DNA of 64,000 bases from Pseudomonadales bacterium (GCA_963663395.1 OY760226.1:3608325-3672324); one strand, 5' to 3'; shown: positions 2,739-49,119, counted from the first letter of the stretch. Notes: generated from the sequence alone by a model not told the origin. Program-made: numbers and translations.

Positions 2739-3971
2739 ATGGCCGAAGCAACCCAGCAGACATTTTTCACCGAAACGCCTCTCGAGCGGGTGCACCGGAT
2801 CAGGGACGCCATCGTGGAAGGCGGTGACGAAGCCCAGAAGGCAAGGCGGCTGCCGGCGGAAACGGCCGAAATCCTCATCCAGGAAGGCCTGTACCGGTTT
2901 ACCCTGCCCCACGAACTGGGCGGCGAAAACGCCAGCGTCCGCGAAACCATCGAAATCCTCGAGGCCATCGCCGCCATCGACGGTTCGGTGGGCTGGAATA
3001 TCATGATCGGCTCGGAGATCAACGCCATTGCCGCGGGCGGCATGGACCCGGCCATCGCCAAGGAAGTCTACCTGGACAACCCCCGGGTGATCATGTGCGG
3101 CGGCGGCGGGCCCGGAACCCAACCCTCCTATGCAATCGAACAGAAGGACGGCAGCTACCGGGTGTGGGGCCAGGCCACCTTCCTCTCCGGCTGCCACAAC
3201 GCCGAGTGGGCCTTCATGGTGGCGCCCATCGTCGAGGACGGCAATCCGAAGATGGACGACGCCGGCGTCCCGATCTTCCGCATGTGGTTCCTGCACAAGA
3301 GCGAGTGGGAGATCAAGGACACCTGGCACATGGCGGGGCTGCGCGGCTCCGGCAGCCACGATGTGTTTGCCGATGGCGCCCTGGTGCCGGAACGACTGGT
3401 GCCGGTGGAACTCTTCAGCGTACCGGCACACTACCCGAACCCGGTATTCCGCATCCCCGTGGCGCTCAGGCTGTCGTTCAACAAGGCAGCCGTCGCCATC
3501 GGCGTCGCCAGAGGCGCCCTCGACGCCTTCTCCGACATCGCCCAGAACAAGGTTCCGCTGTTGACCACCTCCACCCTCAGAGACAAGCCCATCGCCCACT
3601 ACCGCATGGGCGAAGGCGAAGCTTCGCTGCGCGCGGCCCGGTCCTTCCTGATGGAAACCATGGACGACGTGGTGGAGGAACTGGAGGCCGGCGCGCCCAC
3701 GCCCGGCCCCGAGACCACCAAGCTCGCCCGGCTGGCCTGCACTCATGCAGCGAATGTATCCATGCACGTCGTCGACAGCGTGCACAACGCGGCGGGCACG
3801 ACCAGCCTGCGCATGGATTGCCCGCTGGAACGCAAGCTCCGCGATGCCCACGGCTGCGCCACCCACCGCTGGGTTGCGCACCCGCTGTATGCGGAACTCG
3901 GCAAGATGTTCCTCGGACACCCGGGCCTGCCCGAATTTTCCGGGGAAGGGGACGCGCAACCGGGCAAGTGA
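2739..3971 (+). CDS. acyl-CoA dehydrogenase type-2 fold protein; HsaA/C2/DszC-like oxygenase component of a two-component flavin monooxygenase
   Basis: 410 aa. Motifs: RRLPAETAEILIQEGLYRFTLPHELGG, GSVGWNIMIG, SGCHNAEWAF, WEIKDTWHMAGLRGSGSHDV and ERKLRDAHGCATH. The order matches my memory of the M. tuberculosis HsaA sequence. RBS GGAAGG lies upstream. Confidence 0.75.
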   Translation: MAEATQQTFFTETPLERVHRIRDAIVEGGDEAQKARRLPAETAEILIQEGLYRFTLPHELGGENASVRETIEILEAIAAIDGSVGWNIMIGSEINAIAAGGMDPAIAKEVYLDNPRVIMCGGGGPGTQPSYAIEQKDGSYRVWGQATFLSGCHNAEWAFMVAPIVEDGNPKMDDAGVPIFRMWFLHKSEWEIKDTWHMAGLRGSGSHDVFADGALVPERLVPVELFSVPAHYPNPVFRIPVALRLSFNKAAVAIGVARGALDAFSDIAQNKVPLLTTSTLRDKPIAHYRMGEGEASLRAARSFLMETMDDVVEELEAGAPTPGPETTKLARLACTHAANVSMHVVDSVHNAAGTTSLRMDCPLERKLRDAHGCATHRWVAHPLYAELGKMFLGHPGLPEFSGEGDAQPGK

Positions 3972-4028
3972 GCTCCGGTTCCAGATCAAACAAACCAGCG
4001 GCCCCGCCGGTCGCTTGAGGAGTATGCA

Positions 4029-4325
4029 ATGGCAGCTTATTTCGTTCTTCAATACGAAGTGAATGACCGCGACCTGTACCGCGAATACCAGGTCGGCGCC
4101 GGCGCGACCGCCCAGGCCCACGGGGTCGAGGTGGTCGTCTACGACGAGGCCGCGGAAACCATCGAAGGGACACCGCCGGGCAAGCAGACGATAGTGCTGA
4201 AGTTCCGGGACACCGACCACTTCCGCGAGTGGTACGACTCCGACGAATACCAGGCGGTGATCGGCAAGCGCCACGCCGCCACCGACGGCTTCGGCGTCCT
4301 GTCCCAGTCAATGAACGTGCAGTAG
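4029..4325 (+). CDS. DUF1330 domain-containing protein
   Basis: 98 aa. MAAYFVLQYEVNDRDLYREY...IVLKFRDTDHFREWYDSDEYQAVIGKRHAATDG fits the DUF1330 pattern (start M-x-AY, W-Y-x-S-x-EYQ). RBS GAGGAG lies upstream. Confidence 0.8.
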   Translation: MAAYFVLQYEVNDRDLYREYQVGAGATAQAHGVEVVVYDEAAETIEGTPPGKQTIVLKFRDTDHFREWYDSDEYQAVIGKRHAATDGFGVLSQSMNVQ

Positions 4326-4429
4326 CCAATAGCGACGGCGACGCTGACCGGGCGCCGCCGGGACAATCAGCACCTGCGAGCAGGAAACCCGACGCCTCGG
4401 CGCGCTGAAGCGGCGCACTAATGTGCGGC

Positions 4430-4711
4430 GAACAACGCCGAATCTCGGAAAAGAGTTCGCATGCGGGGTCGCCGCCGGTCGGGCGTAGCCCGAGCCGAAG
4501 CACCGCTTCGGCAGGTGGCGACGCCCCGTAACTGGTTGCGGGGCCGGGTGCCAAACTTTCGGCGCGTTAAGCTCGTCCGAACGCCTCGCGTACATCAAGA
4601 CAACGAGGCCGCGCGCCGAAAGGGAAGCCCCGCATGCGAACTCGCTGCCCGGTGCTGGCGGCTGTTCCATAGAAACCAAAGATCCACATGGGCAATTTGT
4701 TCCATCCGAGC
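4430..4711 (+). repeat. copy A of a ~200-bp intergenic hairpin (REP/MITE-like) element, carrying an ~87-nt internal insertion (4469..4555)
   Basis: Aligns by eye at roughly 85-90% identity with the reverse complement of 10107..10307. It contains the long inverted repeat GAGTTCGCATGCGGGG...CTTTCGGCGCG / CGCGCCGAAAGGGAAGCCCCGCATGCGAACTC and short GGAACAA/TTGTTCC-type ends. It lies between DUF1330 and the aldehyde dehydrogenase. Confidence 0.8.
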
Positions 4712-4776
4712 CTGTCCCCGCGCTTGGCAGCCCCGAATTTGGTGGTAAGCTACCGCCCCCCAATTTCCGGACACAC

Positions 4777-6228
4777 GTGAAGGGTAAAACCGTGAGCAAT
4801 CGACAGAAATTCTATATCAACGGCGAGTGGGTAAAGCCCGCCGGCACCAAGACCCTGGCGGTCATCAATCCCGCCAACGAAGAGCCCATCGATGATATCG
4901 CCCTCGGTAACGAGGAAGACGTCAACCGGGCCGTCGCCGCGGCCAAGGCTGCGTTCGAGACTTTCTCCCAAACCACCCGGGAAGAGCGCGTCGCGATGAT
5001 GGAGCGCATCGTCGGCGTCTACCAGGGGCGCATGGACGAAGTGGCAGCGACCATCAGCGAAGAGATGGGCGCGCCCATGTTCCTCGCCAAGGCCGCCCAG
5101 GCACCGATGGGCATCGCCCACATGATGACCAACCTGAACGTACTGAAGACCTTCGAGTTCGAAGAAGACCTGGGTACGTCCCACATCGTCAAGGAACCCG
5201 CGGGCGTCTGCGGCTTCATCACCCCCTGGAACTGGCCGATCAACCAGATCGCCTGCAAGGTGGCCCCGGCCCTGGCAGCCGGCTGCACCATGGTGCTCAA
5301 GCCCTCGGAAGTGGCCCCCTTCAATGCCGTTCTCTTTGCCGAGATTCTCGACGAGGCCGGCGTTCCCCCAGGGGTCTTCAACCTGGTCAACGGCGACGGG
5401 CCGACGGTGGGCGTGGCGCTGTCCTCGCATCCCGATGTCGACATGATGTCGTTCACCGGTTCGACACGCGCGGGCATAGAGGTGGCGAAAAACGCAGCGC
5501 CCACGGTCAAGCGCGTCACCCAGGAACTCGGCGGCAAGTCTGCCAACATCATTCTCGACGATGCCGATTTCCAGGCCGTCATTGCCCGGGACATGGCGGG
5601 CATGTGCACCAACTCCGGCCAGTCCTGCAACGCGCCGACGCGCATGCTCGTCCCGAACGGGCGCATGGACGAGGCCGCGGCCATTGCCCGGTCAGCCGCC
5701 GAAGGCATCAAGGTCGGCGATCCCAAAGCAGCGGACACCAACATCGGCCCGGTGGTCTCCGAAGTCCAGTTCAACAAGATCCAGGGGCTTATCCAGAAGG
5801 GTATCGATGAGGGAGCCAGGCTCGAGACCGGCGGCCCCGGCCGCCCCGACGGGCTGAATCGCGGCTACTACGTGAAGCCCACGGTGTTCTCCCACGTCAC
5901 CAACGACATGACCATCGCCCGGGAGGAGATTTTCGGTCCCGTGCTGTCGCTGATCGGCTACGAGGACGACGAAGACGCGGTGCGCATAGCCAACGACACG
6001 CCATACGGCTTGTCCGGCTACATTTCCGCCGGCGACCCGGACCGGGCCAGGGCCATGGCGCGGCGCATTCGCTCCGGCAACGTCCACCTGAACGGTGCGT
6101 CGGTAGACCCCAGCGCGCCTTTCGGCGGCTACAAGCAGTCCGGTAACGGCCGCGAGTGGGGTACGCACGGCTTCGAGGAGTTCCTCGAGGTGAAGGCGAT
6201 ACTCGGCTACAACGCAGCCGCCGGCTGA
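4777..6228 (+). CDS. NAD(P)-dependent aldehyde dehydrogenase family protein
   Basis: 483 aa from GTG 4777 (alternative GTG 4792). ALDH motifs: FTGSTRAGIEV, ELGGKSANII, catalytic Cys context NSGQSCNAPTRMLV, and EEIFGPVL. Confidence 0.92.
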   Translation: MKGKTVSNRQKFYINGEWVKPAGTKTLAVINPANEEPIDDIALGNEEDVNRAVAAAKAAFETFSQTTREERVAMMERIVGVYQGRMDEVAATISEEMGAPMFLAKAAQAPMGIAHMMTNLNVLKTFEFEEDLGTSHIVKEPAGVCGFITPWNWPINQIACKVAPALAAGCTMVLKPSEVAPFNAVLFAEILDEAGVPPGVFNLVNGDGPTVGVALSSHPDVDMMSFTGSTRAGIEVAKNAAPTVKRVTQELGGKSANIILDDADFQAVIARDMAGMCTNSGQSCNAPTRMLVPNGRMDEAAAIARSAAEGIKVGDPKAADTNIGPVVSEVQFNKIQGLIQKGIDEGARLETGGPGRPDGLNRGYYVKPTVFSHVTNDMTIAREEIFGPVLSLIGYEDDEDAVRIANDTPYGLSGYISAGDPDRARAMARRIRSGNVHLNGASVDPSAPFGGYKQSGNGREWGTHGFEEFLEVKAILGYNAAAG

Positions 6229-6525
6229 GCCCGTCTCGGTTGCCGAGGACCTGTGCGGGGCGCCATTGCGGCGCCTCGCTCGTCCTCATTTGCTGAAACA
6301 TTCGGCAACCAGCGTCGCCGCGGTTGCGGCACCGCCCCTGACGTCGCATTTGCCGGGTCGCAAGTAACATCGTAACGTTGCTGCTCACCGGGCGATACGA
6401 TTGGCCCCGGGGAGCGCGGCCCATGACAGGAACGAAAGCACGCGGTCGATGGCCAGCCGCCTGACAGGCAAGCGGCCGGCGCGCCCGATTCGTGGTGCCC
6501 GCATTTCCTCCGGGCGCCCATCGCG

Positions 6526-8694
6526 GTGAAGTCGCCGTACATCGAACTCGTGAAGGAACTGCGGTCGGACATCCTGTCCGCGCGAGCCGTGCCGGCTCTC
6601 TCCACCGGCGTCACGTCGGGCCTCGGGCTGCTGGTCGCCCAGGTCGCCTTTGCAACCTTCATATTCTCCGGACAGCTTGCCCCCTACACATCCCAGGGCG
6701 TGGGCCTGATCCTGTTCGGAAACCTCGCCGCCTGCCTGGTCACCGCGCTGGCGGGCGGCTTTCGCGGCGTGATCGCCGGGCTCTCCCCCGCGCTGGTCAT
6801 CGGCATGGCTGTCATCGCCTCCACCATGGATGCACAGGGCGACGCCCTGTTCGTCAGTGTAGCGGTTGCGCTCATCCTCAGTGCCGTTCTGACCGGCCTC
6901 TGCATCGTGGCAATCGGGCATTTTCGTCTTTCCAACCTGGTGCGATTCATCCCCTATCCCGTCGCTTCCGGCTTTGTCGCCGGAATCGGCGGCGCCGTGT
7001 GCCTGGCAGCCATGTCGCTGATGGACGCGGAACTGGCCTGGGGAGCGCTTCCGGAATTGCTGGAGCCCGCAACGCTATGGCGCTGGGTACCCGGCGCGGC
7101 CTACGGAATCGCCCTGTATTGGGCGATGAAACGCTGGCGCAACCCGCTGATTCTGCCCCTGAGCGTCGCGCTCGCGGTCGTTGCCTACCATCTGGCGTTC
7201 GCCGCGCTCGGCATTTCCGGCGCCGAGGCACGGGCAACCGGCCTGCTGCTGACCGGCACGGCCGAGGGCAACCTGTGGCCGGTACTGGGCCCCGCCGACC
7301 TGCTGCGCGTGGATTGGGCTGCGGCAGCCCTGCAGGTTCCCAACATGCTGGGCCTGATGCTGGTCGCACTCATCGCCATCGTCATGAACGTCGCCGGCCT
7401 TGAAGTAGCCCTCAACCGGGAGCTGGATTGGGATCGGGAATTCCGGGCCGGGGGCGCCGCCTCCCTCGTCGCCGGTCTGGGCGGGGGTACGGTCGCCACC
7501 ATCGTCGTACCGGCATCGCTGCGCAGCAAGCTGTTCGGGGCCGACACCCGCCTGACCGGCATCTTCGCCGCGCTGGTCATCGCAAGCGCATTGATCGTCG
7601 GCGATGGCATGCTGGAACTGGTGCCGTCGCCGCTGGTCGGCGGCATATTGATCTTCGCCGGCCTCGGCATGCTGGACCAGGGCCTCATCGGCAGCCGCAA
7701 CCGCCTCCCCTCTTCCGCGTTCGGAATCGTCGTCCTGATCTTCATTGTCATCATCGCCTTCGGGCTGCTCGAAGGCATTGGCGCCGGCATGCTGGCGACA
7801 CTCGTGCTTTTCGCCGTGCAGTTGAGCCGCGTGGATACGATCGCATCCCGCTTTACCGCGCGGGAGCGCCGCAGCAACAGGACACGCCCCGTACCCGACC
7901 GGGCCATACTGCTCGAGGAAGGCGAGCGCGTGCATGCCTACCGCCTGCGCGGCTACATCTTCTTCGGCAGCGTCACTTCACTGGTCGACCGGCTCAGGGA
8001 GTCCCTGGACGGTGCGGCGCGGCCCGTCTGCCTCCTGCTGGATTTCGCTGCCGTTTCGGGCTGCGACCCCTCGGCGGTAAGCGTGCTGGCGCGCTTGCTG
8101 CAGACAGCGCAGGCGGCCGGCGTGAAGGTTGTGCTCAGCGCATTGCCGAAGCAGTTGGCCCGCGATTTCGAGCGCAACCTGTCGGCCAAGGCCTTCGCAG
8201 GATTGTTTATCGAGCCCGATGCAGATCACGCACTGGAGCGCGGCGAGGACATCGCGCTGGCAGCATGGCGGGCGGGCACAAGCTCGACGGAGGGGCAGCG
8301 CGCCTCGCTGCTCGAGCGGGCCGCGGACGACCTCGAGCGCTACCTGGAGCGGCAGATCGATTTCGAGGAACTGGTGGAAGAACTGCGCAACTGGCTGGAA
8401 CCGCGGGAGTATGCTGCCGGCGAATCGCTCGCCGTGGCCGCGGAGCCGCAAGACGGCCTGCAACTGCTGATTTCCGGGCGGGCTTCCGCTTGCGATGTGG
8501 CTGGTGCCCGCCTGTACCAGATTGGGCCGGGCGATGCGGTCCGGCCGCCGGGTGCCGGCAGGGAGCAGGCGATACAGGTGGTTGCGGAAGAGAACTGCCG
8601 GACGATGCTGATGACACCCGCCACGCAGGCCTGGTTGGAAACGCACCGCAAGGAACTCGCGCTCAAGCTCTACGGATATCTCCTGGCCGGCTAA
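6526..8694 (+). CDS. SulP-family anion transporter fused to STAS and cyclic-nucleotide-binding-like domains
   Basis: 722 aa from GTG 6526. About 450 aa form a polytopic membrane domain (GLLVAQVAFATFIFSG, GFVAGIGGAVCL, LVGGILIFAGLGML). A STAS-like segment follows (YRLRGYIFFGSVTSLVDRL...LLLDFAAVSGCDPSAVSVLARLLQ). The tail is cNMP-like (YAAGESLAVAAEPQDGLQLLISGRASA...YQIGPGDAV). Confidence 0.8.
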   Translation: MKSPYIELVKELRSDILSARAVPALSTGVTSGLGLLVAQVAFATFIFSGQLAPYTSQGVGLILFGNLAACLVTALAGGFRGVIAGLSPALVIGMAVIASTMDAQGDALFVSVAVALILSAVLTGLCIVAIGHFRLSNLVRFIPYPVASGFVAGIGGAVCLAAMSLMDAELAWGALPELLEPATLWRWVPGAAYGIALYWAMKRWRNPLILPLSVALAVVAYHLAFAALGISGAEARATGLLLTGTAEGNLWPVLGPADLLRVDWAAAALQVPNMLGLMLVALIAIVMNVAGLEVALNRELDWDREFRAGGAASLVAGLGGGTVATIVVPASLRSKLFGADTRLTGIFAALVIASALIVGDGMLELVPSPLVGGILIFAGLGMLDQGLIGSRNRLPSSAFGIVVLIFIVIIAFGLLEGIGAGMLATLVLFAVQLSRVDTIASRFTARERRSNRTRPVPDRAILLEEGERVHAYRLRGYIFFGSVTSLVDRLRESLDGAARPVCLLLDFAAVSGCDPSAVSVLARLLQTAQAAGVKVVLSALPKQLARDFERNLSAKAFAGLFIEPDADHALERGEDIALAAWRAGTSSTEGQRASLLERAADDLERYLERQIDFEELVEELRNWLEPREYAAGESLAVAAEPQDGLQLLISGRASACDVAGARLYQIGPGDAVRPPGAGREQAIQVVAEENCRTMLMTPATQAWLETHRKELALKLYGYLLAG

Positions 8695-8869
8695 CCCTGG
8701 CGCGAACAAAAGCCGTTGACGAGAGGTTTCTCCTCACGTTTTCCGCGGAGGGTGGTCGATGCGGTCACGTTGGCCGGTATACTACGCGCCGCCATTCGGG
8801 AGGCGCGGGGTCTTCCCCGAATGTCCCGAAAACCATATTTCGACACTCATCAAACAAGAGGAAGAATCA

Positions 8870-9289
8870 ATGTCCGATCAACTCTCCGCAGACCGCATCG
8901 CGCTGCAGGACGTTCATTTGCGGTATGCCGCCGGGGTCGATAACCGGGATATGGACATGTACCGGTCCTGTTTCGCCGACGATGTGGAGGTGCTGGGTTT
9001 CGGCGACGAATCCATCCTCGGCGCCGCAGCCTGGGTTGACTACGTTATCGAGGCGCTCAAGCAGTTCGGGCCGACCCAGCACATGCTGGGCCCGCAACTC
9101 GCCACCGTGGATGGCGACATCGCCCACACGCGCTCCGACGTGCAGGCGCTGCACTACATGGCCGATGCCGAAGACACCACGCTGACGCTCTGGGCGACCT
9201 ACGAATCCGACATGCGTCGGGTCGACGGGGAGTGGAAGATCTTCCGCCATCGCCTGGTACGTCGCGGAACCCGGATTCAGCAGGATTAG
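8870..9289 (+). CDS. SnoaL-like / NTF2-family protein
   Basis: Lies in ORF 8759..9289. ATG 8870 is preceded by AGAGGAAG. MSDQLSADRIALQDVHLRYAAGVDNRDMDMYRSCFADDV...WKIFRHRLV is typical of SnoaL_4-type NTF2-fold proteins. Confidence 0.7.
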   Translation: MSDQLSADRIALQDVHLRYAAGVDNRDMDMYRSCFADDVEVLGFGDESILGAAAWVDYVIEALKQFGPTQHMLGPQLATVDGDIAHTRSDVQALHYMADAEDTTLTLWATYESDMRRVDGEWKIFRHRLVRRGTRIQQD

Positions 9290-9315
9290 CTGGTCAACAC
9301 GACAGGGAGCGCAGC

Positions 9316-10080
9316 ATGATCGACCTTCACTACTGGCCCACGCCCAACGGCTGGAAAGTCACGATAATGCTCGAAGAGTGCGGGCTGGACTACAACATCG
9401 TGCCGGTCGACATCGGCGGCGGTGACCAGTTCAGGCCGGAGTTCCTGCGCATCAGCCCCAACAACCGCATGCCGGCCATCGTCGACCACGACCCGCCCGG
9501 AGGCGGCGCGCCGGTGGCGCTGTTCGAATCCGGCGCCATCCTCGAGTACCTGGCAGACAAGACCGGCAAGTTCCTGCCTGCAGAAGGTGTCGAGCGCTAT
9601 CGCGTGCTCCAGTGGGTGCACTGGCAGATGGCGAACCTCGGCCCGATGATGGGCAACGCCAACCACTTCAAGAACTACGCGAAGAACATCACCGACGACC
9701 CGGATCAACTCGCTTACGGGACGAAACGCTTCGTCGGCGAAGTGGACCGCCTTTCGGGCGTCATGGACGCGCAGCTTTCCGTTCATCCCTGGCTGGCCGG
9801 CGCCGACTATTCCATTGCCGACATCATCACCTGGCCCTGGGCGATGCTCATGGGGCGCCTGATCGACGAGACGGTCTGGGACGACTTCCCGAACCTGAAG
9901 CGCTGGGTGGACGAGGTGGGCGCCCGGCCGGCGGTGGACAAGGGATTCCATATCGGCCGCGAGCTTTCCAAACGTGAGTTGACCGAAGAGGAAGAGAAAG
10001 CCCGGCGGGAGCTGCTCTTCAACCAGACCAACGAAAGCGTGCGCAAGGCCAGGGAAGAAGCGGCCCGAGCCACCTCCTGA
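9316..10080 (+). CDS. glutathione S-transferase (Nu/YfcG-YghU-like)
   Basis: Lies in ORF 9232..10080. ATG 9316 follows GGGAG. MIDLHYWPTPNGWKVTIMLEECGLDYNIVPVDIGGGDQFRPEFLRISPNNRMPAIVDH...ALFESGAILEYLADKTGKFLP is the classic N-terminal GST thioredoxin fold of this class. Confidence 0.88.
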   Translation: MIDLHYWPTPNGWKVTIMLEECGLDYNIVPVDIGGGDQFRPEFLRISPNNRMPAIVDHDPPGGGAPVALFESGAILEYLADKTGKFLPAEGVERYRVLQWVHWQMANLGPMMGNANHFKNYAKNITDDPDQLAYGTKRFVGEVDRLSGVMDAQLSVHPWLAGADYSIADIITWPWAMLMGRLIDETVWDDFPNLKRWVDEVGARPAVDKGFHIGRELSKRELTEEEEKARRELLFNQTNESVRKAREEAARATS

Positions 10081-14537: not shown

Positions 14538-15914
14538 CTACGGCAGCAGCGCGGAAGCTTCCCTCACGTCCTGAACGACATCCAGGCGCAACAGCGAGTC
14601 GATCAACCGGTCGATCTGTTGTTCCGGTATCGGGTGCCTGGCGTATTGCAGGCAATCCTTGAATTTCGCAATGACGTCTTCCTCGGACATCGGGTTGTTC
14701 GGGTGCCCGAAAACGATGTTGAGTCGATCGGAGAAAGCCTGTCCGTCCTTCGTCTGGACTTCAACGATGGCCGGTGTGATCTCGGCAGCGGGGCCAAGGT
14801 CGTCACTGACCCGATATTGCACGCGGCGAATGGCGGCCAGCACATCGCGACTCCGCAGATTCGCCGGGAGAAAATCCGCGATCCGGGGCGTTTTGATTAC
14901 GCCAACGGCAACCGTAAAGAAGAGCGAAAATTTTGCTTGAATGCTCATGGTCGGCGCCCTCTTTTCAACCTCGGGTTCGCAGAACAGGTCTCGCGTTCCC
15001 TCAGAGACGACCAGCGTGATCTGCCTGATGTTCGCCGGCACGATGCTGTTCTGAGCGAGAATCCTGCGGGTTGCCTCCACGTAGCCGTGGGTCAGGCGGC
15101 AACAGGGCCAGGGCTTTAGGCTGACCCCGGCGTGGCGGTACTCCTCCCCCAATCCCGACAGCAGCCGTTCCGCATCAAAGCGGTTGTCGTAGTAGTTTTC
15201 AAAAAAAAGCTCAATCCCGTTGCGGCATGCCTTGACGCCACTCCCGGCCAACAACGCGCACAACACCCCCTCCTTGTTGATGAAACCGTCCCGAATCGCC
15301 CGCAACTCCGACTCCGGCGCCGCGACGGCATCGAGTTGTCCGTGACAGCGGTGCAATGCAAGGCCGAGCGCATTGATCAACTGGCCTTCGCTCAGGCGCA
15401 GCAGCTTGCCGGCGGCAGCGGTCGCGGAGAAGACCCCGAAATTGCTGATCGGAAACCAGCGGTGATCGACGCCGAGCTTGCCGGTGGGGGATGCGGACAG
15501 GCGCGCGCCCAGATCACTGCCGAGGGCAACCGCGGTGATAAACTCCCTGCCGCTCACGTTGCCCAGGCGCTCGGCAACGGCGAGCGCCGCTGGAACGGTT
15601 TGTGCCGACGGATGATGACCCAGGTCGTCGATTGTGTCGTCGTAGTCCAGGACGTGGGCGAAGGAGCCGTTGAGATAGGCAGCCATGATGGCGGAGCCTT
15701 TCTTACCCAGCCCGATCATCGTCGACTGGCCCGGGCCGCTCTCTTGCGTCACGATTTCCGCCAGGCGTTCGCAGGTCGGGTCCAGGCTGGAGGGCGGCAC
15801 CATGACGCCGAGCGTGTCCAGAATGCTGAGCCTCGTTTTTTCCCGAACGTCGACCGGGATGCTGTCGTAATCGGTCGCAGCAATGGAACGCGCTATCGTC
15901 TCAGTCAGATGCAA
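14538..15914 (-). CDS. MmgE/PrpD family protein (2-methylcitrate dehydratase-like fold)
   Basis: 458 aa. Motifs: DSIPVDVREKTRLSILDTLGVM, AAYLNGSFAHVLDYDDT and HPSAQTVPAALAVAE. The start overlaps the stop of the upstream CoA-transferase by 10 nt. Confidence 0.88.
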   Translation of the reverse strand: MHLTETIARSIAATDYDSIPVDVREKTRLSILDTLGVMVPPSSLDPTCERLAEIVTQESGPGQSTMIGLGKKGSAIMAAYLNGSFAHVLDYDDTIDDLGHHPSAQTVPAALAVAERLGNVSGREFITAVALGSDLGARLSASPTGKLGVDHRWFPISNFGVFSATAAAGKLLRLSEGQLINALGLALHRCHGQLDAVAAPESELRAIRDGFINKEGVLCALLAGSGVKACRNGIELFFENYYDNRFDAERLLSGLGEEYRHAGVSLKPWPCCRLTHGYVEATRRILAQNSIVPANIRQITLVVSEGTRDLFCEPEVEKRAPTMSIQAKFSLFFTVAVGVIKTPRIADFLPANLRSRDVLAAIRRVQYRVSDDLGPAAEITPAIVEVQTKDGQAFSDRLNIVFGHPNNPMSEEDVIAKFKDCLQYARHPIPEQQIDRLIDSLLRLDVVQDVREASALLP

Positions 15915-18217
15915 CTGTCATCCCCCTCAGTCTTGCGCCAGACTTCCGCGACCGCCGCTGAGTCAATTTCGTACTCACCTGGCGGCGTACCGTCGCGCCG
16001 TCGTGTACCGCGCCAATCGGTAAAACCGCCGATGAGGCGCAGCCGCCCCACGCTGGCCGAGTGGACCACCTTCGTGTAACGCTGTTCACAAAGAAACGGG
16101 TCGTCGAACTCCACGCGTTCAAGTACCTGACAGGCCGGAACACCCCCCGCGGCCAGCGCGATAACCCAATCCTCTACCGTCCTGCCCGACACAACCTGAG
16201 CCATCGCCGCCGCAAGCGCCGCATCACCGGCGCCGGCAAGGTCGGCCAGCCCCAGGATGTCGAGTAACGTCTCGCGCTGCTCCCGGGTACGCGCCGATAT
16301 CGCCATCCACCGGTCTTGCGCGCGATAGTAGCGCCGGCAAGCATCGGGGCCGGGATGATCCATGCCGCCGAGAGCCCGCCCCGGACGGCCCGGATACCTG
16401 GTCAGCTCACCGCTTTGCAGCAACGTCGAAACTGCCGCGAGCGAGGTGAATACGCGTTGCGCAACACCTCTGGTCTCGCGTACGTAAAGCGCCGCCAGGG
16501 TCCCGAGGGCGCCGACGGCGCCAGTAGTGACATCGTGTACCGGAGCGCCGGCCGTAATCGGCCGACCCTCCCCGCCCTGCACCGAGGCAAGCCCGCTGAG
16601 GGTCTGCAGCAGCGGATCGAATCCCGGAAACTCGGCCCACGCCCCCGTCTGCCCGAACGCGGTGACCGAGCAACGAATGAGATTCGCGTTTGCGCGCGCG
16701 TACACTACGGGCTGCAACCGAAGACGTGCGAGACTGGCAGGGAGCAGGTTGTCAACGGCCGCATCGGCGCGCGCGATCAGCTCGAGAAATACTTCCCGTT
16801 CACCGGCATCGCGAAGGTTGAGCCTGACCGCTTTCTTGTGTTCGTTGACGATGGCGTATGGGGCGGTAAACACGCTGTACGGGTCTCCCGCGGGGCTCTC
16901 CACCTTGATGACTTCCGCACCGTGAGTGCCCAACAGGCTCGACACGAATGGCCCGGCAAGAAACGTCGAAGAATCGACCACTTTCAGGCCCGTGAGCGGC
17001 AGAACCCCTGGCTCCGGCCGCTTTCCCCCGGGTTTGGGGGGCGCCGCGCCCTTCCACAGGTCACGCATGTCGGCGAGGTCTCCCGGCACGGGAACCGGGC
17101 CCGCCCGTTCCGGGGTCTGCTCCATGTCCACGGCAACTCCCGGCATGACAAGCTCGCCCACCAATGCGTGCGCCACCCGTACCGGCGGACAGGCACCCGC
17201 GATCACCTCGCCTTCCAGCCAGGCATCGGGAGCCAGGACCGGCGCCGCGGGCACATCGGCTGCCCGAAACGCCTCCAGCCAATGCGCTGCCGTTCGCGAC
17301 CTGAAGACGGGTTCCAACTCGGCGGCCACCCGGCTCGCGATCTCCGGGCGCATGATGTTCGTGAAGTCGCCGGCCACATCTTCCCGGGCCATCACATCCA
17401 CCCGGTCGAGCACATCGAGCGCCCGGAAGAACAGCTCCGGAGACAGCGCGCCGAGAAATATCCAGCGCTCGTTACTACATTGATACAGGCGGAACTGGCA
17501 CCCTCCGCCGATCAGCTTGCCGGAGGAAACGATGGGCGGGCCGTCGATGGAAGCGGTCATGAGCGTGCACAGCGCCGCCCCTGCGGCCTGCAGGCCGGTG
17601 ACCACGGCAGAGCGCCCCCAGCCATCGCGGGCTCTCGCGAACAGCCCGGCCGCCGCGGCCGACGCTGCCATGGCGCCGTGCAGGTGCAGGCGTGTCGGTA
17701 CCACGGATGCCACCGGCCGCTCCTCGGTGGCGGGGTGATGGGCGGCGAATCCGGAGACCGCATCGAGCAACAATTCATCGTGCGGCAGGTGGCTCCAGCG
17801 GCCGCCCGCCGAGATGGGTGGCATCCATACGTGCACGAGCGCCGGGGCCGCCGTTGCCAATGTTGCGGCATCCAGGCCGTTGCGCTCGAGACACCCCGGA
17901 TGCGTGTCTGCCAGCAGGACGTCCGCGCGCTCCGCCAAGCGGCGTAGTTCAAGGGCATGCTGGGATGGGTCGTCCAATGGGCCGAACAGCACCTTGCCCC
18001 GATTCCAGCAAAGAAATCCCGGCATCGCTTCATCACCGATGCGAGGGGTGCCCCCTCGCGCTCCCCGGCTGAGGGCTCCATCGAGCGGTTGTGCCGATAC
18101 CGGCCTGACGACCTCGGCTCCCAGATCGGCGAGCAGCATGCCTGCGGTCTGTCCGGCGATGCCGGTGCTGAGTTCCAGTACGCGAATGCCGGTCAGGGGC
18201 GGCGGTGCCGTTTTCAT
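15905..18217 (-). CDS. tandem-domain (fused) family III CoA-transferase (CaiB/BaiF/MCR family), 770 aa
   Basis: Lies in ORF 15905..18550; I place the start at ATG 18217 (MKTAPPPLTGIRVLELSTGIAGQTAGMLLADLGAEVV). A second complete domain begins at LPLTGLKVVDSSTFLAGPFVSSLLGTHGAEVIKVE and contains GFDPLLQTLSGLASV...PVHDVTTGAVGALGTLAAL. Confidence 0.85.
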   Translation of the reverse strand: MKTAPPPLTGIRVLELSTGIAGQTAGMLLADLGAEVVRPVSAQPLDGALSRGARGGTPRIGDEAMPGFLCWNRGKVLFGPLDDPSQHALELRRLAERADVLLADTHPGCLERNGLDAATLATAAPALVHVWMPPISAGGRWSHLPHDELLLDAVSGFAAHHPATEERPVASVVPTRLHLHGAMAASAAAAGLFARARDGWGRSAVVTGLQAAGAALCTLMTASIDGPPIVSSGKLIGGGCQFRLYQCSNERWIFLGALSPELFFRALDVLDRVDVMAREDVAGDFTNIMRPEIASRVAAELEPVFRSRTAAHWLEAFRAADVPAAPVLAPDAWLEGEVIAGACPPVRVAHALVGELVMPGVAVDMEQTPERAGPVPVPGDLADMRDLWKGAAPPKPGGKRPEPGVLPLTGLKVVDSSTFLAGPFVSSLLGTHGAEVIKVESPAGDPYSVFTAPYAIVNEHKKAVRLNLRDAGEREVFLELIARADAAVDNLLPASLARLRLQPVVYARANANLIRCSVTAFGQTGAWAEFPGFDPLLQTLSGLASVQGGEGRPITAGAPVHDVTTGAVGALGTLAALYVRETRGVAQRVFTSLAAVSTLLQSGELTRYPGRPGRALGGMDHPGPDACRRYYRAQDRWMAISARTREQRETLLDILGLADLAGAGDAALAAAMAQVVSGRTVEDWVIALAAGGVPACQVLERVEFDDPFLCEQRYTKVVHSASVGRLRLIGGFTDWRGTRRRDGTPPGEYEIDSAAVAEVWRKTEGDDSCI

Positions 18218-18228
18218 GGCATGCGAGT

Positions 18229-18393
18229 CTAGCAGCCCGTGGCAAAAGTCCGGCGTAGCACCGAGAGCGCCGATGCGCCCGCCTGGCAAGGCGCGAGGAG
18301 CGAGAATATCGGGCATATTTGAGCGACGAGCAACGCAGTCAGGCGGGCGCAGCGGCGTTCGAATGCCGGCGGACTTTTGCCACGGGCTGCTAG
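18229..18393. repeat. 165-bp extended imperfect palindrome in a divergent promoter region (24-bp perfect outer arms, 11-bp perfect inner arms)
   Basis: The outer arm CTAGCAGCCCGTGGCAAAAGTCCG at 18229..18252 is the exact reverse complement of 18370..18393. The inner arms are GCGCCCGCCTG (18274..18284) and CAGGCGGGCGC (18340..18350). The centre AATATCGGGCATATT is also symmetric. Confidence 0.85.
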
Positions 18394-18488
18394 CATCGGT
18401 CGAGTCGACGGCTTCAGTGCCGCTTGATGATCGGGGCACATTGCCGTAGAAGCTTAAATCGCCATCCGACTGCAGGGGTGAACGGGGA

Positions 18489-19511
18489 ATGACGACCTTT
18501 GGAATAGCCAGCAAGCCCGAGCGCAAGGACGAGTTCATTCGTTGGGTCACCGAGGCCGAACAAGCCGGTTTCGGCCTGGTCTGTACCGGAGATTCGCCGG
18601 CGCTGCTGCGCGATCAGTACGTGGCCCTGACGCTGCTGGCCCTCAATACCACGCATTGCAAGATCGGCAGCTTCATCACCAACCCGGTGTCCCGGCATCC
18701 CACCATCACGGCAGGTGCGAGCAGCACCCTCAACGAGCTCTCGGGGGGCCGCTTCCGCATCGGCATCAGCACCGGCGACAGCGGCATTCTGAACCTGGGC
18801 CTGAAGCGGGCGACGCTGGCCCGGCTCGAAGAGTACGTGGTGACCATGCAGAGGCTGTGGCGCGATTCCGAAGCCCCGTACAGGGGCGGAACCGCGCGCC
18901 TGGTGTGGACCGACGAACCGGTGCCCATCTACCTGGCGGCCGGCGGCCCCAGGGCCCTGGAACTGGCCGGCCGCATCGCCGACGGGGTCTATGTGACCCT
19001 GGGGCTCGCGCCCGAAGCCATCGACGGCGCCCTGCGCCACCTGGAAATCGGGGCCGGGCAGTCGGGCCGCACACTCGACGATCTCGACATCTGGTGGCAT
19101 GTACGCGCCAACATCGACGACGACTACGAGACCGCGGTGCGCGGTTGCCTGTCACTGCTCGGCGGTATCGCGCACCATACGTTTCAGGCCGGCGTGGAAG
19201 GTAAGTTCCTGCCCCGAAGGTACCAGGCGCCCATAGCTGACTTGGCCCGCCAATACAATTCCCAGCAGCACACGCGCATTGGCGGCGACGACGGCCTCAA
19301 TGCCAACGAGCGACTGGTGGTGGACCTCGGTCTGAAGGATTTTCTTTGCGAGAACTTCGCGTTCGTGGGAACACCATCCGACTGGATTTCCAAAGCGAGG
19401 GAACTGCACGGCCGCGGTGTCACCCAGATCGCTTTCGCCGTCGTGGTGCCTGACATCCATGCCTTCATCAAACAGGTGGGCGATGAGGTGATCCCGCACC
19501 TGCCCGGCTAG
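18489..19511 (+). CDS. LLM class (luciferase-like) flavin/F420-dependent oxidoreductase
   Basis: 340 aa. Motifs: GFGLVCTGDSPALLRD, HCKIGSFITNPVSRHPTITAGASSTLNELSGGRFRIGISTGDS and PIYLAAGGPRALELAGRIADGV. Confidence 0.85.
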   Translation: MTTFGIASKPERKDEFIRWVTEAEQAGFGLVCTGDSPALLRDQYVALTLLALNTTHCKIGSFITNPVSRHPTITAGASSTLNELSGGRFRIGISTGDSGILNLGLKRATLARLEEYVVTMQRLWRDSEAPYRGGTARLVWTDEPVPIYLAAGGPRALELAGRIADGVYVTLGLAPEAIDGALRHLEIGAGQSGRTLDDLDIWWHVRANIDDDYETAVRGCLSLLGGIAHHTFQAGVEGKFLPRRYQAPIADLARQYNSQQHTRIGGDDGLNANERLVVDLGLKDFLCENFAFVGTPSDWISKARELHGRGVTQIAFAVVVPDIHAFIKQVGDEVIPHLPG

Positions 19512-24149: not shown

Positions 24150-24989
24150 TTATCTCACCGAGACTGCAGCCTGTGCCAAGCGCTGTGCGGCAGACATGAA
24201 TTCGTCAAAAGTGGCCGACTTTGTATCCACGGCGGCCTGCACGCAACCCGCCGCCTGATAACCGCCGAGCCAATCCTGCATCTCCCCCAACGAAGCATCG
24301 TCGGTGATCCGTCCACGGATGCTCGTGGGCACAATGCGGCCGGCCTGTTCGTCGATGACCGTGCTGCCGCGCTGCACTTCCTCGGGAGACAGACCCGTCG
24401 GGTGCCAGTAGTCGGCGTACTTCGCAGCGCGGCGCAAGGGTGCGCGCGCCGTTCCCCGGGAGCCGATCCACAGCGGAATGCGCGGTTGCTGGACGGGCCG
24501 CGGTTGAAAGCGCACCTTGCGAAAGCTATGAAACTCTCCACTGAAAGCAACATCGTCTTTGGCGCTCCAACAGGCCTGCATGACATCGAGGGCCTCGTCG
24601 GTATACGCACCCCGCCGCTCGTAGAGGTGCTGCCTGCCCAGCGCAAAGAACTCCGCCCGTGCCCAGCCCGTGCCGATGCCCAGGTCGACGCGCCCGCCGG
24701 ACAGCGCGTCGATGCTGGCCAGCATCTTGGCGGTCAGCACCGCGTCCCGGTACGGAACCACCAGCACGCCGATGCCGAGGCGGATGGTATCCGTAATGCC
24801 GGCGACATAGGCGAGCGTGCTCACCGTCTCGAGCCAGCAATCGCCATATACGGGCTGGAAGATCTCGAACCCCACGACGTGGTCGGTGAGCCACAGCCCA
24901 TCGAAGCCCATCTGCTCGAGGTCTTTACAGCCCGCGACCGCCTGTTCCGCAAAAGGCCCCTCGTTGGGAACCACGATATCTACACGCAC
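24150..24989 (-). CDS. LLM class F420-dependent-type oxidoreductase
   Basis: 279 aa from GTG 24989. Motifs: GFDGLWLTDHVVG, IRLGIGVLVVPYRDAVLTAKMLASIDALSGGRVDLGIGTGWARAEF and IPLWIGSRGTARAPLRRAAKYADYW. Confidence 0.85.
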   Translation of the reverse strand: MRVDIVVPNEGPFAEQAVAGCKDLEQMGFDGLWLTDHVVGFEIFQPVYGDCWLETVSTLAYVAGITDTIRLGIGVLVVPYRDAVLTAKMLASIDALSGGRVDLGIGTGWARAEFFALGRQHLYERRGAYTDEALDVMQACWSAKDDVAFSGEFHSFRKVRFQPRPVQQPRIPLWIGSRGTARAPLRRAAKYADYWHPTGLSPEEVQRGSTVIDEQAGRIVPTSIRGRITDDASLGEMQDWLGGYQAAGCVQAAVDTKSATFDEFMSAAQRLAQAAVSVR

Positions 24990-34109: not shown

Positions 34110-35606
34110 TCATGGATTTGTCGATTCCATTTCGCGCTCGATCAACGCACGAACCTCGTTCGACAACACCTTGAACATCGCATTGCGCGGCAGGGCATCT
34201 ACGAATACGACCGCCACGGGCACGCAATACCCGGGTTTGCGCTGTGCAACCCAGGCCTTGAGTTCCGCCGCCGACACCGAGCCGTCCGTGCATCGCACCA
34301 CCGCCGCAGCGGGCACCTGTCCGAGCCGGACATCGTCCAGCCCCACCACCACCGCATCGGCAACCGCCGGGTGCACGCACAGCACCTCGGCCACCTCGTT
34401 GGCGGCGACCTTGAAGCCACCGCGCACCAGCACATCGTCGACCCGGCCCTCGATCCACACGAAACCGTCCTCGTCCATGCATGCGAGGTCGTTGGTGCGT
34501 ATCCAGCCGGCCGGCGCATCGGCCGGACGCCGTGGCGGGTCGGCTTCGAGCAGACCGACTTCGCCCGACGGCAACTCCCTGCCCGTGTCCGCATCCACGA
34601 TGCGCACCTTGTTGTCCGGCAGTGCACGCCCGACACTGCCGCGCTTCTCCTTCACAAGCGCCAGGTCGGTGCCTGCGAACCCCGTCACGGCGCCCAGAAA
34701 CTCCGTTGCACCGTAGGCAGTAATCACCGGTATGCCGTAGGTGGCCTCGAATTCCTCCGCCGTTGCGGGGTCCAGGCGGGCGGACGCCGCGCGGAACACC
34801 GATGCGCCGGACAGGTATTCCCGGGGCACCCGGTTGTCGAGCAGCATGCGAATCACCGCCGGCGGCGCGGCCAACTGTCGCGGTTTGTACGCTCTAACCA
34901 TCTCTGCCCAGCGCCAGATGTCGAAGCGCTCCAGGAGCGCCGTGGGGCGGCCCTTCCAGACCGCCGCCGCCGCACCCATGACGCCGCCCATGCTCACCAG
35001 CGGCACCGCCGAGATGGCCACGCCGCGCTGGTCCGGCGGGCGCGGATTCGCCGGCCGGTCGCCCGCGAAATGCCGGAAAGGCACCGGCACGCGCTTGGGC
35101 GGCCCCGTTGTGCCGCTGGTCAGCATGGTCACCGCGGTGTCGTCGAGCGGCTCGTAGTGGCGGCCCGAGCCCAGGCGCTCGAGCCCCGGAACCACGCGAA
35201 CCGGCAGGTGCCGGTCTCCGGTCAGTTCGATGCCCAGGGTGCCCGTGGCCTGCAGCACTTGCCGAAAACCGGTGCGCCGCCAGTCTTGTGCATCCGCCAC
35301 CAGCACCGCCGGGCGCAAGGCTCCGAGATCTTCACGGATCGCCGCATCCGGCTGAATGGGCGTGGCCAGAACGGCGCAACGGCGCATGGCAAGTACGGAA
35401 ACATAGGCGCCGAAGCAGTGCGGACGCTGTCTGAGCACCAGGCCAACGCCTTCCCGGTCGGCAACCCCTGCGGCGGTGAGCGCATCGCGCAGCCCGTCGC
35501 GTATGCGGGCGAGATCCCCCCAGGTCCAGGTTCCGCCCTCGTAGAACACCGCCGGCGCATCGGGCTCGTTCCGAAAAAGCTCATCGATGCGCTCGTTGAT
35601 CTCCAT
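34110..35606 (-). CDS. AMP-dependent synthetase/ligase (acyl-CoA synthetase)
   Basis: 498 aa. Motifs: P-loop MLTSGTTGPPKRVP, ITAYGATE, WIRTNDLACMDEDGFVWIEGRVDDVLVRGGFKV. Confidence 0.92.
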   Translation of the reverse strand: MEINERIDELFRNEPDAPAVFYEGGTWTWGDLARIRDGLRDALTAAGVADREGVGLVLRQRPHCFGAYVSVLAMRRCAVLATPIQPDAAIREDLGALRPAVLVADAQDWRRTGFRQVLQATGTLGIELTGDRHLPVRVVPGLERLGSGRHYEPLDDTAVTMLTSGTTGPPKRVPVPFRHFAGDRPANPRPPDQRGVAISAVPLVSMGGVMGAAAAVWKGRPTALLERFDIWRWAEMVRAYKPRQLAAPPAVIRMLLDNRVPREYLSGASVFRAASARLDPATAEEFEATYGIPVITAYGATEFLGAVTGFAGTDLALVKEKRGSVGRALPDNKVRIVDADTGRELPSGEVGLLEADPPRRPADAPAGWIRTNDLACMDEDGFVWIEGRVDDVLVRGGFKVAANEVAEVLCVHPAVADAVVVGLDDVRLGQVPAAAVVRCTDGSVSAAELKAWVAQRKPGYCVPVAVVFVDALPRNAMFKVLSNEVRALIEREMESTNP

Positions 35607-35622: not shown

Positions 35623-36675
35623 CTATGCGGCCCGGTTTTCTTCGATCAGCCGATGCACGACTTCGATGGTCTCGAGCTTGGCATCGGCGCCCCGCCCCAT
35701 GACCTGCAGCTGGAGGATATCGATGCCGCAGTGCTCGTATTCCCGCAGGCGCTCCCGCACCATGTCCCGGGTGCCGATCACGCTGGCCTGCAGCGCCATG
35801 TCGTCAGGAACCCGGGCCACCGCCTGGTCGCGCTTCCCCGCCACCCAGAGCCGCTGCACGTCAGCGGCCACATCATCGTAGCCGATGCGCCGGAACGCCT
35901 GGTTGTAGAAATTGGTCTTCGGCGAGCCCATGCCGCCCAGTTGAAACGCCAATGCCGGCTTGCGTTTGGCAATCATCTCCTCGACGTTGTCGCCCACGCC
36001 GACAACCGCACCCACGGCAAGCTCGATGTCATCGAAGTTTCGTCCCGCTCGCACGGCCCCGCGCCGCATGGGCTCCAGGTACGATGCAGCCGTCGCGGGC
36101 GTGAACGAGGTGCCGATCCAGCCGTCCGCCATTTCCCCCGTGTATTCCAGCGCCCTCGGCCCCAGGGTCGCCAGAAAGATCGGAATGTTGGCATTCGGCC
36201 GGTGCGCCAGGCGCAGGGCCTTGCCTTCGCCGCCGGGTAGGGGCAACACATGGTGTTTGCCCTCGTAGCGCAGCTTCTCGCCCGCGAAGGCGAGCTTCAG
36301 GATGTCCACCAGTTCCTTCATGCGCGCCAGCGGATGTGCAAAAGGCACGCCGTGCAGGCCCTCGACAACCTGGGGCCCGCTCACCCCCAACCCAAGCATG
36401 AACCGGTTTTCGCTCATCGCCGCCAGAGACAGGGCTGCCATGGCGATGTTTCCCGGTGCCCGCGCGCTGACCTGGGCGATGCCCGAGGCCAGCCGCATCG
36501 TCGTGGTCCTGGCTGCCAGATAGGCCAGCGGCGTGAACGCGTCGGTACCCCAGGCCTCAGCCGACCAGGCCACGTCGACACCGAGTTTTTCACACTCGAT
36601 CGCATAGTCGACCGAGCGCGCGAAGCCGCCTTTCCTGTCCGCATCCACGCCGCCTATGGCAATAGCCGTTTTCAT
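35623..36675 (-). CDS. LLM class F420-dependent-type oxidoreductase
   Basis: 350 aa. Motifs: CEKLGVDVAWSAEAWGTDAFTPLAYLAARTTTMRLASGI, NRFMLGLGVSGPQVVEGLHGVPF and IPIFLATLGPRALEYTGEMADGW. Confidence 0.88.
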   Translation of the reverse strand: MKTAIAIGGVDADRKGGFARSVDYAIECEKLGVDVAWSAEAWGTDAFTPLAYLAARTTTMRLASGIAQVSARAPGNIAMAALSLAAMSENRFMLGLGVSGPQVVEGLHGVPFAHPLARMKELVDILKLAFAGEKLRYEGKHHVLPLPGGEGKALRLAHRPNANIPIFLATLGPRALEYTGEMADGWIGTSFTPATAASYLEPMRRGAVRAGRNFDDIELAVGAVVGVGDNVEEMIAKRKPALAFQLGGMGSPKTNFYNQAFRRIGYDDVAADVQRLWVAGKRDQAVARVPDDMALQASVIGTRDMVRERLREYEHCGIDILQLQVMGRGADAKLETIEVVHRLIEENRAA

Positions 36676-45212: not shown

Positions 45213-45302
45213 GAATTCGCGGCTGCAAACTACTGCGAACGAATTTGAGCATGTATTCTGCGCCCCCGGATCGCTCATTCAGATGCATGGTGACAGAACG
45301 TA

Positions 45303-46502: not shown

Positions 46503-46517
46503 AATCGGGAAAACGCC

Positions 46518-48966: not shown

Positions 48967-49119
48967 GCATGCCTCCCGTATAATTTCTTCCCTTGGGATT
49001 AAGTTAACCCATTCACACTGGCTTGCCCACCATCCGGTCGGCGGCTCGAGTCCGCCAGCCAATGCATCCGCAACAACGATGGGCTATAAAGGCCGATTGC
49101 TGAACCAGGAGATTGGAGC

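Follow-up and report, generated by a model that had tools for sequence, protein, structure and literature searches.

A 64,000-nucleotide stretch of DNA from a Pseudomonadales bacterium (GCA_963663395.1, OY760226.1:3608325-3672324; hereafter the window) carries two genes, W1 and W2, that each encode two family III coenzyme A (CoA)-transferase domains in a single chain. W1 (15905..18217, minus strand, stop codon included) encodes 770 amino acids in a single open frame, and W2 (39645..42074, plus strand, stop codon included) encodes 809 amino acids in one uninterrupted frame, corresponding to public collection entry P0131. Pfam PF02515 (CoA_transf_3) matched two stretches in each protein, with E-values of 1e-120 for W1 and 1e-130 for W2 and scores of 403.5 and 436 bits, respectively, against a cut-off of 23.3. 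By comparison, all NCBIfam equivalog models for the family (succinate-glutarate CoA-transferase, Frc, YfdE, CaiB, mesaconate CoA-transferase, and Mct) scored far under their cut-offs, the best scores being 157.8 bits for W1 and 225.6 bits for W2 against a cut-off of 750 for the nearest model, succinate-glutarate CoA-transferase. Because both proteins exceed the PF02515 cut-off and miss every equivalog, they can be placed in the family, yet neither can be assigned a named function. A search with the C-half profile found no other family III gene in the 64,000-nucleotide window.

In W1, the N-terminal CoA_transf_3 domain, as delimited by hmmsearch, comprises residues 4-372 (17102..18208, minus strand) and is the half that lacks the catalytic aspartate. 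It is joined by a linker of residues 373-405 (17003..17101, minus strand; GPVPVPGDLADMRDLWKGAAPPKPGGKRPEPGV) to a C-terminal, catalytic domain of residues 406-763 (15929..17002, minus strand), in which the best Pfam stretch is 408-740. Searched against PDB chains with phmmer, the two W1 domains gave E-values of 4e-19 and 8e-33, respectively. The corresponding parts of W2 are an Asp-less, BbsE-type-like N-terminal domain (residues 7-387; 39663..40805, plus strand), a linker (40806..40844, plus strand), and a catalytic, BbsF-type-like C-terminal domain (residues 401-808; 40845..42068, plus strand).

W1 is 100% identical to public protein P0001, and its start is ambiguous. The minus-strand open reading frame is free of stops over 15905..18550. 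W1 as used here is the reading from the ATG at 18217, which gives the 770-residue protein, fits the N-termini of homologues, and begins with MKTAPPPLTGIRVLELS, as is usual for family III CoA-transferases; the ATG at 18316 would give the 803-residue public call, and a GTG start at 18550 would overlap the divergent luciferase-like (LLM) oxidoreductase gene at 18489..19511. No clear Shine-Dalgarno sequence was found upstream of the ATG at 18217. The two-domain architecture and the aspartate pattern described below are unaffected by this ambiguity, and the strings PTRLHLHGAMAASAAAAGL and PVHDVTTGAVGALGTLAAL, quoted in an earlier model-generated reading of the window (the original prediction), are both present in the 770-residue protein.

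The catalytic-aspartate column in W1, W2, and their homologues

We located the catalytic-aspartate column in each of the four halves with three alignments: phmmer against PDB chains, MAFFT L-INS-i with E. coli CaiB, Frc, and YfdE, and hmmalign to the C-half profile. By all three methods, CaiB D169, Frc D169, and the YfdE aspartate aligned with D562 in the C-half of W1 (PVH-D-VTTG; codon GAT, 16532..16534, minus strand) and with D577 in the C-half of W2 (VLP-D-FVG; codon GAC, 41373..41375, plus strand), making these residues the predicted catalytic nucleophiles. The three methods also agreed that the same column is occupied by L177 in the N-half of W1 (PTR-L-HLHG; codon CTG, 17687..17689, minus strand) and by T159 in the N-half of W2 (PLA-T-GVAG; codon ACC, 40119..40121, plus strand); all four codons were read directly from the DNA. 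No Asp or Glu occurs within three positions on either side of W1 L177, and neither N-half has an acidic residue at the column itself when aligned with CaiB, Frc, and YfdE. Thus, both C-halves have the aspartate at the start of a long helix that marks family III enzymes, and both N-halves lack it. The original prediction had described W1 as two complete domains with a catalytic aspartate in the C-terminal half only, and had seen the same pattern in the second fused gene at 39645..42074; the alignments confirm this observation for both genes.

A search with W1 recovered 499 relatives at E<=1e-10, of which 120 were listed, and a search with W2 recovered 295. Nearly all of the 120 listed W1 relatives are 700-820 residues long, and the few of half length resemble fragments or frameshifted calls. 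Fused relatives occur in metagenome-assembled genomes (MAGs) labelled Chloroflexia, Actinomycetota, Binatia, Alpha- and Deltaproteobacteria, Dehalococcoidia, and Acidobacteria, and in one Bradyrhizobium genome; a profile scan of genome contigs returned relatives that were mostly distant and often single-domain.

When W1 and W2 were aligned in MAFFT with 114 full-length homologues, every one of the 116 sequences had the C-half aspartate, and the N-half column contained Leu, His, Ser, Thr, Asn, Phe, Gly, or Gln. The same C-half result (aspartate in 242/242) came from an HMM-anchored count of complete two-domain homologues of both proteins; here the N-half residue was non-acidic in 212 (88%), Glu in 17, and Asp in 13, the acidic exceptions being mostly distant W2-type sequences. 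W2 D577 is one of only two invariant columns in a 97-sequence alignment (A2). When the W1 N-half was searched exhaustively with phmmer against 1.84 billion representative proteins, 152 matches were found at E<=1e-30; the top 150 included 108 full-length proteins, of which 101 combined an acid-free N-half with a C-half aspartate. None of the homologues examined had the reverse polarity of a live N-half and a dead C-half. As a control, neighbouring unfused single-domain gene pairs retain the aspartate in both genes. On whether N-domain degeneration is conserved, a question raised in the original prediction, the 212 non-acidic sequences speak for it, and the roughly 12% that keep an Asp or Glu speak against it. 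One of the fusions with an aspartate in both halves is a 780-residue protein from a Lachnospiraceae MAG (L061, 6173..8512). Because of this protein and the acid-retaining minority, fusion alone does not imply a dead site, and N-half degeneration, as judged from these sequences, is a strong tendency in the fused class and no absolute rule.

Two side observations concern unusual arrangements among these relatives. An Actinomycetota MAG (L007) contains two-domain CoA-transferase frames back to back (3111..7199 and 7072..9849), and in both of these the aspartate is missing from the N-half and present in the C-half; the first runs for 1,363 codons without a stop and may bear a long N-terminal extension. 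Five proteins of single-domain length (P0310, P0318, P0321, P0338, and P0392; 413-428 residues) resemble the W1 N-half and have Ala, Gly, Ser, Tyr, or Ile in place of the aspartate. These proteins, of which P0310 lies on a contig of only 1.7 kb, may be free-standing non-catalytic subunits of split versions.

Conservation and predicted structure of the two halves

Overall, the N-half is as conserved as the C-half. Among 90 W1-family members, mean pairwise identity was 44.0% in the N core, 44.7% in the C core, and 19.6% in the linker, a distribution that marks the N-half as a constrained partner and not as a decaying copy. The conservation is distributed differently within the halves. Columns that are >=90% conserved made up 24% of the first segment of the large domain, which runs from the CoA-binding strands as far as the Asp helix, in the C-half and 11% in the N-half, 36% and 6%, respectively, of the 36 residues around the Asp column (the pre-Asp motif), and 4% and 10%, respectively, of the last, C-terminal segment. 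The KVExPxGDPYR motif after strand 2 is kept in the C-half, and the N-half has an unconserved loop (residues 44-54) at this place. Reportedly, the structure papers on CaiB and Frc place each active site between one protomer's large domain and its partner's small domain. The asymmetry that we observed fits a live site on the large domain of the C-half, to which the N-half would contribute, and a reciprocal site that would have been abandoned.

One N-half feature near the vacated site is conserved in the W1 family. Residue 180 of W1 (17678..17680, minus strand), three positions past the former Asp site, is His, and this +3 column contains Gln in 58, His in 55, and Ala in 3 of 116 W1-family sequences, compared to Thr, Ser, or Gly in canonical enzymes. 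The His/Gln motif is absent from W2-type N-halves and from the Asp-less chains of two split heteromers discussed below (BbsE-type chains and EbN1 gene A).

We ran AlphaFold2 on W1 and W2 as monomers with family alignments and compared the models with the PDB by Foldseek. Both proteins were modelled as single compact bodies, with a mean predicted local distance difference test score (pLDDT) of 94.0 and a predicted template-modelling score (pTM) of 0.95 for W1, and values of 93.9 and 0.95, respectively, for W2. A pTM of 0.95 over 770-809 residues means that the two halves are confidently placed relative to each other. The W1 linker had a pLDDT of 93-97 although it is poorly conserved, and that of W2 had a pLDDT of 62-87; the pLDDT of the W1 N-domain was mostly >90, except in loop 44-54 (<50). 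Foldseek matched the models only to single-domain chains of ~400 residues, with query-normalised template-modelling (TM) scores <=0.48. The best matches to the whole W2 model were the chains of BbsEF (succinyl-CoA:(R)-benzylsuccinate CoA-transferase; PDB 9fn0, 9fol), chains B/D first (TMt 0.93, root-mean-square deviation 2.1 Å) and chains A/C next (TMt 0.85). The pTM of 0.95, together with TMt values of up to 0.93 to protomers taken from dimers, is compatible with an interlock within one chain.

What the analysis shows directly is how the domains are arranged, which residues occupy the catalytic column, how far this pattern is conserved, and that both proteins give confident, compact models. 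On this basis we read W1 and W2 as covalent pseudo-heterodimers with a single class III active site, in which the N-half would serve as structural partner. We give this reading a probability of roughly 0.78; it is also the one put forward in the original prediction, and the alignments, the family-wide conservation, and the single-body models favour it. The intramolecular interlock, the single active site, the donor, and the substrate go beyond what is shown and are inferred. Each chain would fold on itself into an interlocked pseudo-dimer, much as single-domain enzymes form one from two chains, and the resulting covalent alpha-beta 'heterodimer' would have one catalytic centre around the C-half aspartate (D562 in W1, D577 in W2). 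By the standard class III route, this residue would attack the donor acyl-CoA to give an Asp-acyl anhydride and then an Asp-CoA thioester, from which CoA would be handed to the acceptor carboxylate. The N-half would be held under strong selection as an obligatory structural partner and would probably help to form the substrate pocket of the live site. The reciprocal site on the N-half itself would be dead, since the aspartate, the conserved motif before it, and an ordered KVE-P-GD loop have all been lost there.

The known two-domain class and alternative readings

The original prediction considered such a fusion unusual and knew of no characterised example, and here it was mistaken. The class has been described, two members, DddD and PtmU4, have been characterised (PMC6006322, PMC7174347), and BbsEF and a gene pair from Aromatoleum aromaticum EbN1 are split equivalents. 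Dong et al. (2018), following Todd et al. (2007), defined the two-domain class by domains in tandem, a linker of low conservation, and an aspartate conserved in the C-domain, counted 2,401 two-domain proteins in bacteria, and found the class to be widespread in Actinobacteria and Proteobacteria (PMC6006322). W1 and W2 share all three features and do not differ from the class at that level. Thus, they are new, uncharacterised members, from a gammaproteobacterial MAG, of the known two-domain (tandem) type III class.

DddD of Marinomonas MWYL1, a dimethylsulfoniopropionate (DMSP) CoA-transferase/lyase, resembles W1 and W2 in having full-length tandem CaiB-like domains. Its catalytic residue is reportedly Asp602, which we take to be ~160 residues from the start of the C-domain, a position comparable to that of D562 in W1 and D577 in W2. 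The usual ddd partner genes are those for a BCCT transporter, dddB, and dddC, and we found no such neighbourhood (a BCCT-type DMSP transporter, dddB/dddC-type dehydrogenases, or a LysR regulator) among the genes scanned around W1 and W2. The CaiB domains of DddD span residues 1-416 and 439-821 (PMC7174347), and this enzyme, the sole characterised two-domain member before 2018, is an outgroup to the other two-domain enzymes in the analysis of Dong et al. (PMC6006322). PtmU4, a thioacid-forming enzyme from Streptomyces platensis, is likewise a two-domain chain that needs its C-domain aspartate: D430 is conserved in PtmU4 and its homologues, and its mutation lowers activity 125-400-fold (PMC6006322). 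PtmU4 differs in its length of ~600 residues and its truncated N-domain, whereas the N-domains of W1 and W2 are full-length and their aspartates are at 562 and 577. Its partners are sulfur-carrier proteins and an acyl-CoA synthetase encoded next to it, and no such cassette adjoins W1 or W2: no sulfur carrier was found among the scanned neighbours, and the only AMP-binding gene (34110..35606) lies 4 kb from W2 on the opposite strand.

The split heteromers show the same residue pattern in separate chains. In BbsEF, chain B has D178 at the catalytic column (structure 9fol is titled "D178-CoA adduct") and chain A has Tyr171, so that this enzyme, like W1 and W2, combines one Asp-less and one catalytic unit; it differs in consisting of two separate polypeptides, with only 24-30% sequence identity to the fused proteins. 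No bbs or UbiD genes were found near W1 or W2 among the genes scanned. Among annotated relatives on plasmids, the best for W2 is a pair of CoA-transferase genes that overlap by 4 nucleotides on plasmid 2 of A. aromaticum EbN1 (NC_006824, 66351..68755), alongside UbiD/UbiX/UbiD and TRAP transporter genes. EbN1 gene A (L089, 6998..8185) has Tyr at the Asp column and is 35% identical to the W2 N-half, and gene B has the catalytic aspartate and is 34% identical to the W2 C-half. The anaerobic o-phthalate cluster includes a succinyl-CoA:phthalate CoA-transferase (PMC13040137, PMC9516798), and from gene context and this review text we infer that the EbN1 pair is the succinyl-CoA:o-phthalate CoA-transferase. 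The pair is colinear with W2, with the Asp-less unit first and the Asp-bearing unit second, and differs in being split and in standing beside genes for a UbiD/UbiX phthaloyl-CoA decarboxylase, none of which lie near W2. Because BbsEF and the EbN1 pair have the same subunit order and residue pattern, W2 can be regarded as a fused version of a known alpha-beta heteromer. As a side observation, Tyr occupies the Asp column in the Asp-less subunits of both split heteromers (BbsEF chain A and EbN1 gene A) and also in 10 W2-family N-halves. The single-domain enzymes Frc, YfdW, YfdE, CaiB, SUGCT, and MCR share the fold and the Asp position of the W1 and W2 C-halves and differ in being homodimers with two equivalent active sites.

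Several points weigh against W1 and W2 being single-site pseudo-heterodimers. The intrachain interlock is deduced from the pTM and from precedent. Besides the ~12% of two-domain homologues that retain an N-half Asp or Glu, the Lachnospiraceae fusion has an aspartate in both halves. The gene neighbourhoods of homologues vary widely, and all equivalog models were missed by a wide margin, so that they name no substrate. Finally, the conserved His/Gln in W1-type N-halves hints at some retained role for the N-half pocket.

This last point is the starting point for an unlikely alternative, in which the N-half pocket has been repurposed for a second activity or for a ligand-binding or regulatory function that uses non-canonical residues such as the His/Gln of the W1 family. 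The strong overall conservation of the N-half and the departure of its +3 column from the Thr, Ser, or Gly of canonical enzymes would be expected under this alternative, and both DddD (CoA-transferase plus lyase) and PtmU4 (thioacid formation) exceed plain CoA transfer (PMC6006322). In the N-half, however, the motif before the Asp column and the loop that follows strand 2 and binds CoA are poorly conserved or disordered, and W2, EbN1 gene A, and BbsE-type chains do without the His/Gln motif. Moreover, structural partnership and a contribution to the live site explain the high conservation of the N-half equally well.

A quite unlikely alternative is that halves are swapped between chains, the N-half of one chain pairing with the C-half of another, to give dimers, each with two live sites, or larger assemblies of such dimers. 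Single-domain family III enzymes such as Frc, CaiB, and MCR are obligate interlocked dimers, BbsEF is said to be an alpha2-beta2 assembly, and an AlphaFold2 run on a monomer is no test against swapping. The monomer models nonetheless reached a pTM of 0.95 with the W1 linker confidently placed, and two-domain PtmU4 elutes as a monomer on size exclusion (75.9 kDa observed compared to 65.2 kDa calculated; PMC6006322, supplementary figure 16). It is highly improbable that the fusions are assembly or annotation artefacts and that each locus really holds neighbouring separate genes, as for BbsEF and the EbN1 pair. Split versions of the same order exist and a few database relatives are of half length, but the half-length relatives look like fragments or frameshifted calls, the W1 and W2 frames are open across the linker, 11 members of a 90% identity cluster come from different assemblies (including contigs of 1.6-6.7 Mb), and continuous fused frames in hundreds of independent genomes and metagenomes from many phyla make a missed stop or frameshift very unlikely.

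We also compared the four halves with each other by profile-profile alignment. With N and C denoting the halves and 1 and 2 the W1 and W2 families, hhalign scores were 415 for N1-C1, 381 for N1-N2, 360 for N1-C2, 468 for C1-N2, 542 for C1-C2, and 563 for N2-C2. In these scores together with a rough neighbour-joining tree, the N-half of each family was nearest its own C-half; rates were unequal, with the W1-type N-half on the longest branch. This own-partner grouping could reflect separate duplication and fusion events with convergent loss of the N-half aspartate or, equally, a rate artefact. We consider it somewhat unlikely that the aspartate was lost independently, and always with the same polarity, in at least two lineages of fused enzymes, the W1 type and the W2/BbsEF type. 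If it was, the shared polarity would suggest that the interlocked fold imposes a constraint on structure or folding, a candidate being an ordered linker that occludes the site built on the N-half, and the His/Gln motif of the vacated W1-type pocket could serve a new binding or regulatory role.

For annotation, reading W1 and W2 as covalent pseudo-heterodimers would mean that fused "CoA transferase" genes of ~750-820 residues are to be taken as single-active-site pseudo-heterodimers with a catalytic C-terminal aspartate, and neither as two enzymes nor as mis-assemblies. The survey puts numbers on what the literature states only in passing, namely a C-domain aspartate in 242/242 and a relaxed N-domain position, and connects the fused proteins with heteromers that are encoded by two genes in the same subunit order, namely BbsEF and the EbN1 pair. 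Neither phmmer nor Foldseek found a solved two-domain structure in the PDB copy searched; given this, a structure of W1 or W2, both well predicted, would be useful but would bring no surprise. The interest of these proteins is modest: the asymmetry of the halves has been quantified, fused heteromers are linked to split ones, and that PDB copy lacks a two-domain entry.

Genomic neighbourhood

W1 is followed on the same strand by an MmgE/PrpD-family gene (14538..15914, minus strand; Pfam PF03972 and PF19305) with a TTG start that overlaps the end of W1 by 10 nucleotides (15905..15914). Given this overlap and a GGGGGA just upstream of the TTG, the MmgE/PrpD gene is probably translationally coupled to W1. 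W1 also adjoins the divergent LLM oxidoreductase gene and a MatE transporter gene. The block of LLM oxidoreductase, CoA-transferase, MmgE/PrpD, and MatE genes is kept around a 73%-identical W1 orthologue (L086) and is no longer present in orthologues of 64% identity or less. W2 is flanked by a P450 gene on one side and, on the other, by genes for a molybdopterin oxidoreductase with a 4Fe-4S subunit, which are followed by a PimC/PimD-like acyl-CoA dehydrogenase pair; the link to the molybdoenzyme is kept in a 71%-identical W2 orthologue (its recurrence was noted in L088).

The neighbours scanned around W1 and W2 encode MmgE/PrpD, LLM oxidoreductases, MFS and MatE transporters, P450s, acyl-CoA dehydrogenases, an acyl-CoA ligase, an SDR, a SnoaL-like protein, a GST, and the molybdoenzyme with its Fe-S subunit, and none of these gave an equivalog-level NCBIfam match. 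No conserved functional partner was found across the homologue neighbourhoods: the MmgE/PrpD pairing occurs only in close orthologues, and the other neighbourhoods consist of generic catabolic genes. W1 and W2 sit in catabolic islands, and their role is most likely the ATP-free activation of a carboxylic acid, with succinyl-CoA or a comparable compound as donor. Judged by the closest family similarities, all of them below threshold, a dicarboxylic or alicyclic acid is a reasonable guess for the substrate.

Three further features of the window were noted in passing. The genes directly downstream of W2 (42268..47654, plus strand) encode a DMSO-reductase-family molybdopterin oxidoreductase of 756 residues, its 4Fe-4S subunit, and the PimC/PimD-like pair; the oxidoreductase begins MTDEIVVNTVCAHNC, and no twin-arginine motif was seen by eye in that first stretch. 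Two P450 genes are present in the window (38127..39407 and 47743..49062). This apparently gammaproteobacterial genome also has three LLM oxidoreductase genes in the window (18489..19511, 24150..24989, and 35623..36675), one of which scored 323.9 bits against the 335-bit cut-off of the F420-dependent Rv3520c subfamily.

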